Of a DNA stretch of 64,000 nucleotides, positions 22,559-29,418 are shown one piece after another. Below the pieces are notes generated by a model. It was not told the origin of the DNA and did not search any database. It was given only the letters and a program-made list of their open reading frames with translations. The DNA lies in NCBI GenBank assembly GCA_965207455.1, contig CBDBMJ010000003.1, positions 288,001 to 352,000 of the forward strand, in the 5' to 3' direction. Position 1 is the stretch's first letter, and each line of letters starts with the position of its first letter. Origin of the DNA: Bdellovibrionota bacterium. Its GTDB lineage: Bacteria > Bdellovibrionota > UBA1018 > CAIPTA01 > JAALKR01. The position numbers were made by a program, and so were the translations under genes.

Positions 22559-23895
22559 AGGTATTAAACTCAAATGTTTCAAACCCGTCGAAGAATGAAT
22601 TATTCAATTTCACCAATGGATTGGATATGGATATATTACTCTACAAACAGGAAATTAAAGTTCAGAAGGCTTGGCTTGCTCAACTAGTAAAGACCAGAAT
22701 TATACAAACCAAAGAGGGAGAACTAATTCGTTTAGCACTCTGCGAAGCCAAAGAACTAATGGCATCGGGGGATTTCAACTGGAAGGTTGAAGATGAAGAT
22801 ATTCACATGAACATCGAGAGGTTTATTATTGAGAAATGTGGTGAGGTGGGTAAAAAAATTCATTTAGGTAGATCAAGAAACGACCTAATCGCAACCACAT
22901 TAAGACTTTACGTTTATGAGTGCATAAACAAAATTCAACAACTTATCTCAAACGTAGGACTAGAGATAAAAAATCAATCATTGGAATGGATAAATGTACT
23001 TGTACCAGGAATGACTCATCTCCAATTCGGTCAACCCATTAGGCTAGGCCATGCATTTTCTTCCCATGGATACGCCCTAATGAGAGATCAAAAACGATTA
23101 CATGACGTAACAACAGAATGTTTATCCTATTGCCCTTTGGGAGCAGCAGCTTTTGCCGGCACACATTTATCTATTGATCTTAAATCTCTCGCAAACGAAC
23201 TAGGATTCTCAAACCCACTACTACATTCTTACGATGCCGTAGGAGATCGTGATTTTATCTTAGATGCCTTGAATAGCTTTTCTCTTCTATCTGTTCACCT
23301 CGCAAGGCTATCCGAGGAAATAATGTATTGGTCATCCACTCCAATGGGAGTATTGGACTTACCAAATCAATACTCAACTGGCAGTTCAATTATGCCAAAT
23401 AAACGAAACCCAGATGTGCCAGAACTGGTGCGAGCAAAAATGGCAAGGGTGATGTCTTGCGCCCAAGAGGGCTCCATTATTGTAAAGGCCGTTGTTCCAA
23501 GTTACGGAACAGATCTACATGAATTGAAAAGAACTTTTGTATTATCCTTTAAAGAATTAAGCGCATCACTTAAAATTTTATCTCCATTCGTAAATGGATT
23601 AAAATGCAATACAGGCGCAGCTAAAGAAAAATTAATGTCGGGCCATATTCTCGCAACAGATGTGGCTAATAAGCTTTGCCAGGAAGGCGTCCCTTTCAGA
23701 GATGCCTACCTAAAGACAGCAGCCTTTGTTCATGAAGCCAATAAAAATAATAAGCAAGTCCATGAAATTGCTACTACGAAAATGGGATTCGATTTTTCTG
23801 CTGAAACCGCTGTTGAAGATAGAAAAAACCTCGGCGGAACCGCCCATAACCAAGCCCTTTCTGCTGTAATGAACCTCTCTTTTGGCTCCAGTTAG
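22555..23895 (+). CDS. argH: Argininosuccinate lyase
   Basis: 'EDIHMNIE', 'GRSRND', 'GMTHLQ', 'TGSSIMPNKRNPD'. Confidence 0.96.
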   Translation: MKVLNSNVSNPSKNELFNFTNGLDMDILLYKQEIKVQKAWLAQLVKTRIIQTKEGELIRLALCEAKELMASGDFNWKVEDEDIHMNIERFIIEKCGEVGKKIHLGRSRNDLIATTLRLYVYECINKIQQLISNVGLEIKNQSLEWINVLVPGMTHLQFGQPIRLGHAFSSHGYALMRDQKRLHDVTTECLSYCPLGAAAFAGTHLSIDLKSLANELGFSNPLLHSYDAVGDRDFILDALNSFSLLSVHLARLSEEIMYWSSTPMGVLDLPNQYSTGSSIMPNKRNPDVPELVRAKMARVMSCAQEGSIIVKAVVPSYGTDLHELKRTFVLSFKELSASLKILSPFVNGLKCNTGAAKEKLMSGHILATDVANKLCQEGVPFRDAYLKTAAFVHEANKNNKQVHEIATTKMGFDFSAETAVEDRKNLGGTAHNQALSAVMNLSFGSS

Positions 23896-24221
23896 ATTTC
23901 GGAGTCTAGCTGATTTTTAGAAAACAAGATTTTGCTATAACGATCAATATGATCCTTCAGCGGTGGATAGGTGATTAAATGGTAAGCATTGACGTCGACC
24001 TTGTAAGGAAGGCTGCTTTCATGAAATTGCGTCCACAGACTGCGAATATCCTTATCAGTTATATCACCGTAGACAACTAAATCTATATCTGAATAATTTT
24101 TATAAGAACCAGTGGCCCTTGATCCAAACAAGGATATTTTATCAATACGACTAACAAAATCTTTACAAATATTTTTGATGAGTTCTAGTTGCTGTTTTTG
24201 TAGCCCATGATTGGCACTCAT
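23892..24221 (-). CDS. Minimal nucleotidyltransferase (MNT antitoxin-like)
   Basis: 'LFGSRATG...SDIDL' (GSX10DXD) and 'LPYKVD'. Confidence 0.9.
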   Translation of the reverse strand: MSANHGLQKQQLELIKNICKDFVSRIDKISLFGSRATGSYKNYSDIDLVVYGDITDKDIRSLWTQFHESSLPYKVDVNAYHLITYPPLKDHIDRYSKILFSKNQLDSEI

Positions 24222-24643
24222 GTTTTTTCCATATATTTTTCTGCTAACGTTTCATAAAGCTCACTAAAGCAATTAAGATACTTCTTTCTTATTTCTTCTA
24301 TTGCTCGCTCAAACGCTTTAAAGTCATAGGTGTGGCTCATGGCATTGCGCAGGTCTAGTGCCTCCATCCAACCCTGTTCGTGAGATATTAACTTACTAGC
24401 AATAGCCTCTTTCAGTACGGCTCTAGGTGTAATCTGAGCAAATACCACCCCCTGACCCTCTAAATAATCTTTAATAGTTTTCCACGCCAACTTACTACAA
24501 TACTTAAACCTTCTTATAGTTCCCTCTTTTTCCAGTTGATTTAAGTGCCCACTCTCAATCTGGTCTATCGCCTCTGCCAGTAAAATATAGGCTCTCTTGT
24601 AATTATCAAATCTATATTGCCAACGCTCCTTGCTTTTTTTCAT
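24218..24643 (-). CDS. HEPN / HI0074-family nucleotidyltransferase substrate-binding protein
   Basis: 'RWQYRFDNYKRA', 'LAWKTIKDYL', RX4H motif 'RNAMSHTY'; ATGA-coupled to the MNT gene. Confidence 0.9.
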   Translation of the reverse strand: MKKSKERWQYRFDNYKRAYILLAEAIDQIESGHLNQLEKEGTIRRFKYCSKLAWKTIKDYLEGQGVVFAQITPRAVLKEAIASKLISHEQGWMEALDLRNAMSHTYDFKAFERAIEEIRKKYLNCFSELYETLAEKYMEKT

Positions 24644-27495: not shown

Positions 27496-28644
27496 ATGTC
27501 TCCAGAAAATCATCTCGTAAATCGCTTCATTTTGCCAGACTTGAAGTTCAAAAAATTCATAAAACAATCTAACAAGACGTTTCTCTTCTTCTGCGTTAAG
27601 AAGAGCCAATGGGAAGTATGCCGGAAGTGCCCCACAAAATCCTTCTCCGTTCATGACAAGAGAATGGTAACCATCAGAGATGCTCGGCTTCAAAACAAGC
27701 ATGTGAAGCTCATTATTGAGAAACGGCGGTTCCGCTGTCCAAGGTGCAAATCTGTATTCACTGAATCTATTGATGGTATTAAGGTTGGATTTAGAACCAC
27801 AGAGAAGTATCGTAATGAACTCCTTTATGACTTCAGGCAATCGTCTTGCGCAACAACTGTTGCTAAAAAGCTAAGATGCTCCACCTCTTTTGTGACTTAC
27901 ACTGTGAATGAAAGGCTTGAGCTTGAACTTAGAAAGTCAAGGAACGCTCCTTGGTCTAAAACAGTCTTAATTGATGAGCATGCTTTTGGTCGCAATAAGA
28001 AATTCAGGATAAAAGATTTTGTTACTTGCTTTGTCGATAATCCTCGTCGATGCCTAAGAGAAATGGCATCTGGTCGTAATCATACTGATCTTTATGAAGC
28101 TATTAAACACATCCCTGGGAAAGAAAATGTATCTCATGTTGTTATTGATATGAGTGCAAACTATAAAAATTTTGCAGAAAGTTATTTCACAAATGCTCGT
28201 ATTGTTGTTGATAAGTTTCATGTTTTAAGACTTCTCCAGCCAGCAATAAGGAAATATAGGAAAGAGGTTACCGGTGATGACAGGAAGAATCCCATAAGGA
28301 GGCTTCTCTTAAGGAACGGGAGAGATTTAAAAACCTATCAAAAAAGGGCGATTGGAAGATTTTGTAGAGAAAACCCTACCCTTGGTGAGGTCTATAATTT
28401 CAAAGAGCGAATAAATAACTTTTATAGAATAAAAGGCTTCAATCAAGCATCAAGAATTTTAACAAAGATCACTGATGATATGGCCTTATCCAAAATAAAA
28501 GAGATTAGAACGATGCGTAGAACAGGTCTCACCAATGCTCGTATTGAAGGATTCAATCGAAAGTGTAAGCTCCTTCAGCGGCAGGCATACGGTTTTCAAA
28601 ACTTTGAGAACTATAGGCTGCGAGCACTCTACAAATGTAGTTAG
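27496..28644 (+). CDS. ISL3-family transposase (probable internal in-frame deletion)
   Basis: Zinc finger CxxC...RFRCxxC, 'IDEH', 'IDMS', 'DKFH', 'TNARIEGFN', 'YGFQNFENY'. Confidence 0.9.
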   Translation: MSPENHLVNRFILPDLKFKKFIKQSNKTFLFFCVKKSQWEVCRKCPTKSFSVHDKRMVTIRDARLQNKHVKLIIEKRRFRCPRCKSVFTESIDGIKVGFRTTEKYRNELLYDFRQSSCATTVAKKLRCSTSFVTYTVNERLELELRKSRNAPWSKTVLIDEHAFGRNKKFRIKDFVTCFVDNPRRCLREMASGRNHTDLYEAIKHIPGKENVSHVVIDMSANYKNFAESYFTNARIVVDKFHVLRLLQPAIRKYRKEVTGDDRKNPIRRLLLRNGRDLKTYQKRAIGRFCRENPTLGEVYNFKERINNFYRIKGFNQASRILTKITDDMALSKIKEIRTMRRTGLTNARIEGFNRKCKLLQRQAYGFQNFENYRLRALYKCS

Positions 28645-28884
28645 GGCCAGAACTAGATGCCTTTGAAGGGCCTAAGGTTCGTTTTGGAGTATAGGAAGCA
28701 CTGATTTTAAAAAATCAGCTGGATAGCTTTATCTTAAATCCTATAAATATGTTGAAAATGACTATAAATCATGCGATATCCATGAACAGAAACTGAAAGT
28801 TGTTACTCGTGTGAGCCTCTAGGACTGTGTTTTGGAATGACTTCCACCATTAACTTTAGAGACCCGATATAACGCATTAATTTT

Positions 28885-29273
28885 TGGCGGAGAGAGAGGG
28901 CTCGACCCACTACAGGAAATCCCTTCCAGAGGATTTCCCTGCGTAGGCTCTCCTACGCAATTTAAAAAATCTTCCACGATTTTTTTCCCCTCACTAGTCC
29001 CTCGCTAGCTCGGAACCAGCGCGGGTCATTGCTCCGTGTTCGAATCCCTCTGCTTATTTTCCTATGTGTGGATGCAAGGGTTTGAAAGGTTTTTATTCCA
29101 CTTTGTATGTGGCGGAGAGAGAGGGCTCGACCCACTACAGGAAACCCCCTCCAGGGATTTCCCTGCGTAGGCTCTCCTACGCAATTTAAAAAATCTTCCA
29201 CGATTTTTTTCCCCTCACTAGTCCCTCGCTAGCTCGGAACCAGCGCGGGTCATTGCTCCGTGTTCGAATCCCT
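28885..29273 (-). repeat. Two ~165-bp tRNA-3'-end-linked direct repeats with distinct 57-60 bp spacers
   Basis: 28885-29049 and 29110-29273 are near-identical; on the minus strand each ends in CCCTCTCTCTCCGCCA, the 3' end of the adjacent tRNA. Confidence 0.92.
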
Positions 29274-29330
29274 GCTTGTTATCGCATTTTGTTGGAGCAT
29301 ACTCACCTTTAGATACAACGCATTAATTTT

Positions 29331-29418
29331 TGGCGGAGAGAGAGGGATTCGAACCCCCGGTGCCTTGCGGCACACCGGTTTTCAAAACCGGAGCATTCGG
29401 CCACTCTGCCATCTCTCC
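29331..29418 (-). tRNA. tRNA-Ser(TGA)
   Basis: GGAGAGATGGCAGAGTGGCCGAATGC...CCGGT-TTTGAAA-ACCGG, long variable arm, GGTTCGAATCC, encoded CCA; 88 nt. Confidence 0.96.

Follow-up and report, generated by a model that had tools for sequence, protein, structure and literature searches.

The tRNA-Ser(TGA) gene of a Bdellovibrionota bacterium (assembly GCA_965207455.1) is followed by two near-identical repeats of about 165 bp, set apart by unrelated segments and bearing pieces of the tRNA gene at both ends. This locus raises the question of what such an array is, how its repeats came to carry parts of their neighbour, and whether it belongs to a known class of elements. A first-pass annotation had left two readings side by side: co-transcribed, CCA-ended structured small RNAs, or a non-autonomous element that integrates serially at the tRNA 3' end with a variable segment. 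Here, we compared the array with the rest of its genome, its class and known repeat systems. The array most probably represents a non-autonomous element that takes its ends from the tRNA gene it targets. Below, "the window" refers to the whole stretch of 64,000 nucleotides in which the array lies, and C1, C2 and C3 denote contigs.

A two-unit array behind tRNA-Ser(TGA)

Read in tRNA sense, the array consists of the tRNA with its CCA, trailer A, a repeat, trailer B, a second repeat and a remnant of trailer A. The first-pass annotation had given this order with coordinates that agree with ours throughout, and the period of 221-225 bp that it reported was measured as 221 and 225 bp. The parts are as follows.

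29331..29418 (-): tRNA-Ser(TGA) with encoded CCA, host gene of the array (ARAGORN; Rfam RF00005, 57.8 bits)
29343..29354 (-): T-loop and 3' T-stem strand of tRNA-Ser(TGA), from G53 onward, copied by the inverted arms
29274..29330 (-): trailer A, 57 bp; a trailer 86-88% like it is repeated at tRNA-Ser(GGA)
29110..29273 (-): unit 1, a 164-bp repeat
29262..29273 (-): unit 1 inverted T-arm, 12/12 complementary to tRNA-Ser(TGA)
29131..29261 (-): unit 1 core, with hairpins H1, H2 and H3 and helix P4
29110..29130 (-): unit 1 tail, a degenerate T-loop followed by the 3' strands of T-stem and acceptor and the CCA of tRNA-Ser(TGA)
29050..29109 (-): trailer B, 60 bp, whose last 2 bp lengthen the unit 2 arm
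28885..29049 (-): unit 2, a 165-bp repeat
29038..29051 (-): unit 2 inverted T-arm, 14/14 complementary to tRNA-Ser(TGA)
28906..29037 (-): unit 2 core, departing from unit 1 in H3 only
28885..28905 (-): unit 2 tail, with CCA at its end
28866..28884 (-): start of a trailer-A copy, 19 bp, cut by the ISL3 end
27496..28865 (+): ISL3 insertion sequence (transposase PF01610 at 27496-28644, end at 28865), which truncates the array and is otherwise only a neighbour

Each unit starts with the reverse complement of the T-arm, exact over 12 nt in unit 1 and 14 nt in unit 2, and both tails end in a T-arm variant, the acceptor 3' strand and CCA, as had been described from the sequence. The further suggestion that these two ends pair with each other needs to be qualified: the arm fits the tRNA gene better than its own tail, whose T-loop copy is degenerate. 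The two copies are identical over their first 119 bp and their differences are confined to the last hairpin; the first-pass annotation had placed them in the second of its two hairpins. The 19-bp remnant resembles the start of trailer A at 18 of 19 positions. Both units fold better than all of their shuffles (200/200 each; z -3.55 and -3.89). In an Rfam scan of the window, the tRNA alone reached a gathering score, and at E-value level no family fitted the core in the window stretch or in 20 homologous loci; sX4 matches among the homologous loci fall on the tRNA-Ser part.

Contigs of sequencing run X1, which may be the source sample, cover all 30 bins of the region and contain other arrays of the family, and one exact contig spans trailer B with its flanks. 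Among the X1 contigs listed, none spans the array, and the window's version of trailer A and one core position are absent.

The insertion sequence that truncates the array shows a pattern of its own. All three copies of the ISL3 end in the genome lie 9-19 bp behind the CCA of a tRNA or of an array, at window position 28865 and at C3:370503 and C1:1515920 (an array of tRNA-Ser(GCT) and tRNA-Gly(TCC)), which suggests a preference of ISL3 for tRNA 3' flanks. In run X3, a related ISL3 is longer by 39 bases near 28523, and the window transposase may therefore carry an in-frame deletion. Elsewhere in the window, at 23892-24643 (-), upstream of IS5 and ISL3, a nucleotidyltransferase and a substrate-binding protein (PF18765, PF08780) form a pair that resembles an MNT-HEPN toxin-antitoxin module.

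Units and trailers across the genome

The array is one of several in this genome. An nhmmer search with the core returned 24 matches, all of them (24/24) at 10 tRNA loci among the 33 tRNA genes, in keeping with an element of tRNA 3' ends. The occupied genes are those for Met, Arg(CCT), Gln, Glu and Trp, three for Ser and two for Pro, with one to five core matches per locus. Complete units all finish with the 3' tail of the tRNA at their locus. The cores at eight of the loci are 81-96% identical. The T-arm sequence GTTCRAATCC, to which the common arm corresponds, is found in 9 of the 10 occupied and 6 of the 23 free tRNAs (Fisher p 0.0015); the Gln and Pro(GGG) arms match just 10 nt.

In eight arrays the first unit starts 58-65 bp behind the tRNA gene. 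The tRNA-Gln array lies 11 kb from its gene, beyond an island with a tyrosine integrase. This island (C1:1228300-1239092, about 10.7 kb) sits at the tRNA 3' end and has displaced an array of three units; since it stands between gene and array, the array predates it. The copies at tRNA-Pro(TGG) are partial and lie 1.2 and 4.6 kb from the gene. Behind this tRNA, C3:34600-40660 holds repeated modules interleaved with the partial cores, and the open reading frames of these modules share a common upstream region and a signal-peptide-like start but have differing bodies. Pieces of the modules match contig C2, the same stretches of which match many sites on C1. Contig C2 (C2:1-5588, 5.6 kb) encodes a tyrosine integrase and is 74% like the integrase region by tRNA-Leu(CAA) on C1; it is possibly an excised or unplaced element.

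The segments between the repeats had been regarded as spacers that are unrelated to each other and variable. Trailers A and B are indeed unrelated, but neither is unique to this array. Trailer A recurs at tRNA-Ser(GGA) (86-88%), and trailer B recurs at tRNA-Ser(GCT), where it is 93% like the first trailer and 83% like another, at tRNA-Trp (88%) and in the tRNA-Gln array (80% over 46 bp). In most arrays of the genome one trailer is repeated within the array. The "spacers" are thus locus trailers, usually repeated within an array, and the window array is a mosaic of trailers from the other two serine tRNA genes. Compared with phage sequences, the spacers gave no convincing match (best E 0.4). 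The notion of a conserved repeat with a variable acquired spacer is therefore dropped, and with the recurrence of the spacers behind other tRNA genes a CRISPR-like reading falls. A CRISPR-like array was also rejected on the length of the repeats (164-165 bp) and the lack of linked cas genes: the sole cas1 of the genome lies at C1:455.6 kb, more than 300 kb from the closest core match on C1.

A conserved and covarying core fold

The fold of the core is conserved and covaries across related units. It comprises a closing helix of arm and tail, three hairpins and a helix, P4, joining CCTAC-like and GTAGG-like strands, in which CCTAC pairs with GTAGT(A/G)GG directly before the tail. Two adjacent hairpins had been proposed for the repeat. 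The first of these, TGCGTAGG-N4-CCTACGCA, is present in the window but is lineage-specific: its central motif, GTAGG-N3-5-CCTAC, occurs in 7 of 80 distinct units, and we rejected the TGCGTAGG hairpin as part of the conserved fold.

The fold was examined in units outside the training set of the covariance model R1, which was built from 18 units. In 29 such distinct units, aligned by fitting to the model and, being related, not independent of each other, 92% of cells are paired (33-42% in slid controls) and 33 of 38 pairs show two-sided changes. None of 500 shuffles of these units was as high in paired cells and covariation score. Families whose cores are about 60% identical share both the four-helix fold and its covariation.

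Across 74 units, G-T pairs (132) outnumber A-C pairs (20), and we therefore take the tRNA-sense strand to be the strand that folds. Two of the hairpin loops follow C-N-N-G-A-N-G, and CAGGATG and CAGGAG are the most frequent loop sequences; among 341 loops on perfect stems, GGA occurs in 108, CGA in 49 and TGA in 37. The G-T bias and the GGA-rich loops suit RNA equally well, and the bias does not tell RNA from single-stranded DNA.

Distribution across the class and phylum

R1 found the core in 51 of the 127 class genomes searched, and in 5 of 80 further genomes from the rest of the phylum. Occupancy is patchy, with 76 of the 127 class genomes lacking an R1 match. BLAST against 40 relatives returned one weak match, and an exact motif was present in 6 of 400 other genomes of the phylum. 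Scans of sequence collections gave 15 and 12 loci, the named records including Bdellovibrionales, Bacteriovoracaceae, Oligoflexia and Deltaproteobacteria MAGs; two of the 15 have no R1 match and were set aside as chance matches.

Linkage to tRNA and tmRNA genes extends beyond the genome studied here. In a subset of 72 units, taken from the best-scoring loci with duplicate records removed, 53 have the end of a tRNA or tmRNA gene on the same strand no more than 700 bp away; of the remaining 19, many are close to a contig end or beyond an island. First units stand behind at least 21 tRNA types and tmRNA. The trailer measures 17-213 bp, and 48-65 bp in 21 of 45 loci. The long trailers of seven loci (106-171 bp) each form an extended hairpin, whose loop contains a palindromic insert of a second kind. 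Cores often differ between adjacent units of the same tRNA, and truncation or scrambling affects many units.

Local ends and genome-tracking cores

The usual layout is a tRNA gene (once tmRNA), a trailer, an inverted local T-arm, the four-helix core and a local tail from T-loop to CCA. The ends of a unit match the gene beside it. On average the arm matches the local gene over 10.7 nt, compared with 3.7 nt when partners are shuffled (n=53; 2000 shuffles, the highest reaching 5.3), and 38 of 53 homologous units have tails matching at least 16 nt from G57. The local tRNA is strictly the best target of the arm in only 27 of the 53 units, because many T-arms are alike. Exact arm inversions of at least 20 nt occur in 4 of 53 units, reaching 44 nt and in some cases running through the CCA into the trailer. 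With X standing for the host tRNA 3' end, from T-loop through CCA, plus some downstream sequence, these 20-44 nt arms suggest an original form X - inverted X - core - X. Long arms tend to accompany short tails (5/8 versus 9/45, p 0.023).

At positions that distinguish the tail from the tRNA, the arm follows the tRNA in 42 cases and the tail in 1; at 20 further positions tail and tRNA agree and the arm alone deviates. On the 42-to-1 count we rejected the idea that arm tracking stems mainly from correction of a quasi-palindrome formed by arm and tail; correction of the arm against the tRNA gene itself is a possible alternative.

The cores, on the other hand, track the genome and not the tRNA type. 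In 27 of 28 testable units, the core is closer to that of another tRNA type in the same genome than to that of the same type in another genome. Mean core identity across tRNA types is 87% here and 68% within other genomes, against 61% for the same tRNA type across genomes. Cores at tRNA-Phe and tRNA-Met of two congeneric genomes are 97% identical, while their arms and tails are wholly local. An orthologous tRNA-Phe locus is occupied in three congeneric genomes with differing cores and, in two of them, a homologous trailer, a pattern to be expected from gene conversion of the core just as from a new insertion. At tRNA-Met in these three genomes, one gene is occupied, one stands directly before unrelated sequence and the third has no full match.

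The junctions show a recurrent offset of 2 nt between the end of the arm and the start of the tail (42 of 53 units). It occurs in the registers G53/T55 (21 units), favoured by a search pattern demanding GGTYVA, and T54/C56 (18 units), which came from model matches; three units, two of them scored poorly, have other registers.

Search for a partner enzyme

GIY-YIG nucleases leave 2-nt 3' overhangs. The genome, which is 94.7% complete, encodes a single GIY-YIG protein, of 610 aa, and contains no match to Y1/RAYT transposases (PF01797) and no RVT_1 reverse transcriptase. None of the 136 open reading frames beside units encodes a GIY-YIG, Y1 or reverse transcriptase protein, and one of the 136 is a tyrosine integrase; the genome has nine tyrosine-integrase matches, one of them beside the displaced Gln array. 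Among the best 30 of more than 250 GIY-YIG matches in the class, none has a unit nearby and one has a tRNA. A GIY-YIG partner is thus not supported by the genome, the neighbourhoods of units or the best 30 class loci. Viral contigs yielded no match to the unit pattern, and phage and plasmid collections gave just short matches (E 0.1 and E 0.009 or worse).

Origin of the array

Of the two readings left by the first-pass annotation, that of a non-autonomous element at tRNA 3' ends has gained from the loci in this genome, the class-wide family and the covariation alike. Our preferred account, held with moderate confidence, is that the array consists of two copies of a gene-less tRNA-linked repeat (TLR) whose core was inserted through a cut in the T-loop and copying of the target. 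A trans-acting enzyme would open the T-loop of a new tRNA gene by a site-specific staggered cut and so admit the core; the target would then be copied in a fold-back manner, yielding both the inverted arm and the duplicated tail with the tRNA left intact. The inverted copy would then wear down to the 10-14 nt adjoining the core. As the T-loop copy within the unit decays, the arm would still be complementary to the intact T-loop of the gene, and it may for that reason help to choose targets. Two ordinary steps could follow: recombination between direct copies of X would amplify units in tandem, and units or cores would be swapped between tRNA loci with similar tails. Such exchange between loci would explain why the window array mixes trailers of the other two serine tRNAs. 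ISL3 would have inserted later, 19 bp behind the last CCA. The lack of a candidate enzyme in the genome or beside the units counts against insertion, as do the units for which the local tRNA is not strictly the best target, the 20 positions at which the arm alone deviates and the Gln and Pro(GGG) arms with their match of just 10 nt.

Units of this kind could instead be kept as functional RNA, co-transcribed with the tRNA and CCA-ended like rtT, in which the arm tunes tRNA folding or processing, the GGA loops titrate CsrA, or both, while selection preserves the match of arm and tRNA and conversion keeps the cores uniform. CCA-ended small RNAs are plausible, and so is a pre-tRNA whose T-arm pairs with the arm of the unit. 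Once transcribed, the arm is predicted to pair at equilibrium with the tRNA T-arm, with p 0.98 in the window and p >0.5 in 44 of 49 loci; the prediction takes no account of tertiary structure, modifications or kinetics of the tRNA, and some bases of the arm can pair with the tRNA alone. No terminator-like site lies between the window tRNA and the array, nor in the array, whereas in the wider family a terminator-like hairpin stands ahead of the arm in 10 of 45 first trailers. Strong covariation with a G-T bias on the tRNA-sense strand would be expected of such an RNA. The most frequent loops of the family, CAGGATG and CAGGAG, contain GGA, and this genome has csrA; many loops, however, carry CGA or TGA and not GGA. 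In the accessible text of PMC8144298, the rrn-linked E. coli TLRs bind CsrA but the 19 TLRs of tRNA operons score below 0.01 as CsrA binders, and an excerpt of PMC4986893 reports Northern signals for the RtT family in Actinobacillus. Arrays moved 11 kb by an island nevertheless persist, occupancy is patchy and many units are truncated or scrambled, and overall we consider a functional RNA rather doubtful. A neutral by-product appears less probable still. Template switching corrects inverted repeats at quasi-palindromes, and an old hairpin-rich insert might have been spread from one tRNA locus to another by gene conversion and by RecA-type recombination at short stretches of T-arm homology, its arm corrected in this manner to the adjacent tRNA. 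This would require no linked enzyme, and none was found; it would agree with orthologous loci that retain a homologous trailer while the core changes, with trailers common to tRNAs of similar T-arm and with the one T-arm sequence shared by occupied tRNAs. Yet it leaves unexplained the conserved four-helix core with its covariation, the recurring 2-nt junction offset, the 48-65 bp trailer mode (21/45 loci) and the same layout around another core in E. coli.

Two further explanations carry little weight. The units might be att scars: tyrosine or serine recombinases could have left behind mini-elements or a tandem series of attR sites, for which the Dehalococcoides ssrA islands offer a model. Direct repeats of a tRNA 3' end that start in the T-loop are typical of such islands (PMC3146451, in the part available) and one of the nine tyrosine-integrase matches in the genome lies by the displaced Gln array. 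But the units have no cargo and do have an inverted arm, near-identical cores stand at tRNAs with unrelated acceptor stems, a single one of the 136 neighbouring open reading frames is an integrase, the Gln island lies between gene and array and so displaced an older array, and the phage, plasmid and viral collections held no convincing match; we regard this origin as very improbable. Hardly credible is a CRISPR-like array with acquired spacers, or an assembly duplication. A near-identical pair of repeats around unrelated segments, in a genome with a cas1 on another contig, could give that impression, but related segments stand behind other tRNA genes and are repeated inside arrays, the best phage match has E 0.4, the two units differ in H3 and trailer, and the family is present in 51 of the 127 class genomes.

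Comparison with known systems

TLRs were described in E. coli in 1978 and still lacked a function in 2021, according to the portion of PMC8144298 that we drew on. As defined there, they lie behind a tRNA or rRNA gene in one to five copies per locus, and their 3' 18-19 bp equal the 3' end of the upstream RNA gene. The copy number of rtT varies among strains (PMC2658671, in extract), and raised coverage at tyrT has been ascribed to RNA/DNA heteroduplexes and not to circles (bioRxiv 2024.07.17.603846, in extract). The Bdellovibrionota units likewise are tandem, non-coding and placed behind tRNA genes, each with the 3' end of its host tRNA: in this genome they occupy 10 tRNA loci with 1-5 core matches each, and the window tails are exact over their last 16 nt and preceded by a degenerate T-loop.

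The tandem repeats of E. coli tyrT had been named as a precedent, and the likeness proved closer than was claimed, as the tyrT and lys repeats of E. coli also bear an inverted T-arm about 60 bp behind the CCA. In MG1655 the order is CCA, about 60 bp, inverted T-arm, hairpin-rich core and tail, both in the 178-bp repeats of tyrT/tyrV, where the arm extends over 22 nt at 86%, and at lysQ, where it is exact over 13 nt. The mode of trailer length is common to the class-wide units and tyrT. There are also differences: the tail starts at A58 in tyrT and at T55/C56 in Bdellovibrionota units, the arm spans the whole T-arm in the two E. coli cases and stops at G53/T54 here, and units here also stand behind tmRNA. 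R1 gave E 0.2 or worse on two E. coli TLR regions, detecting no homology of the cores. The Rfam RtT model (RF00391) had no match in the genome at its gathering threshold, with a positive E. coli control, and none in the window or the 20 homologous loci. The array therefore counts as a TLR, whose definition and layout it shares, but with cores that are not detectably homologous it falls outside the Rfam RtT family. The literature we searched holds no account of this core family or of an inverted T-arm in TLRs, and the words "inverted", "mobile" and "duplication" are absent from the main text of PMC8144298; the primary papers (Egan and Landy 1978, Bosl and Kersten 1991, Rudd 1999) may describe the arm.

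Other systems share single features with the units. In the available part of PMC3146451, the ssrA islands of Dehalococcoides carry tandem direct repeats of the 3' end of an RNA gene with a T-loop junction, and such repeats accumulate in tandem as they do here. Those repeats, however, flank multi-gene islands with a serine integrase module, whereas the units here measure about 220 bp, include an inverted arm, place one core behind many tRNA types and are gene-less, with neither integrase nor cargo between the repeats as in an att array. CsrB/RsmZ sponges and the rrn-linked RrA/B/F RNAs have GGA hairpin loops. Loops with GGA, often CAGGA(T/A/G)G, also occur in the units, and csrA is present in this genome; each unit has about two such loops, however, and CGA or TGA often stands in place of GGA. 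REP/REPIN sequences are non-autonomous hairpin repeats that go with a RAYT (Y1) transposase gene, which they flank. The units resemble them as non-autonomous hairpin repeats with GTAG-like motifs in the core, but their copies are confined to tRNA 3' ends, their ends derive from the target, and PF01797 is absent both from the genome and from the 136 neighbouring open reading frames.

The family offers comparative data beyond a single genome, namely local ends, cores that move or convert, full-length fold-back forms, the 2-nt offset and a mode of trailer length in common with tyrT. These data make the origin of TLRs testable and give clues to the spread of such repeats. If a dedicated enzyme exists, it would represent a tRNA-gene-specific insertion system steered by target-derived sequence. 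For annotation, it is relevant that such arrays are easily confused with CRISPR arrays, att scars and pseudo-tRNAs. A wider view, which we offer tentatively as possible but on balance unlikely, is that TLR-type repeats in general are a widespread but overlooked class of self-programming non-autonomous mobile elements, with the E. coli tyrT and lys repeats and the present family as separate core families served by one trans-acting nuclease or recombinase pathway. A structured single-stranded core would be joined into a tRNA T-loop cut with a 2-nt stagger, fold-back copying would write a new arm, and the arm would guide recognition of matching T-arms. Whichever route the core took, the array behind tRNA-Ser(TGA) is a TLR-type repeat with its own class-wide core, in a layout known from E. 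coli.
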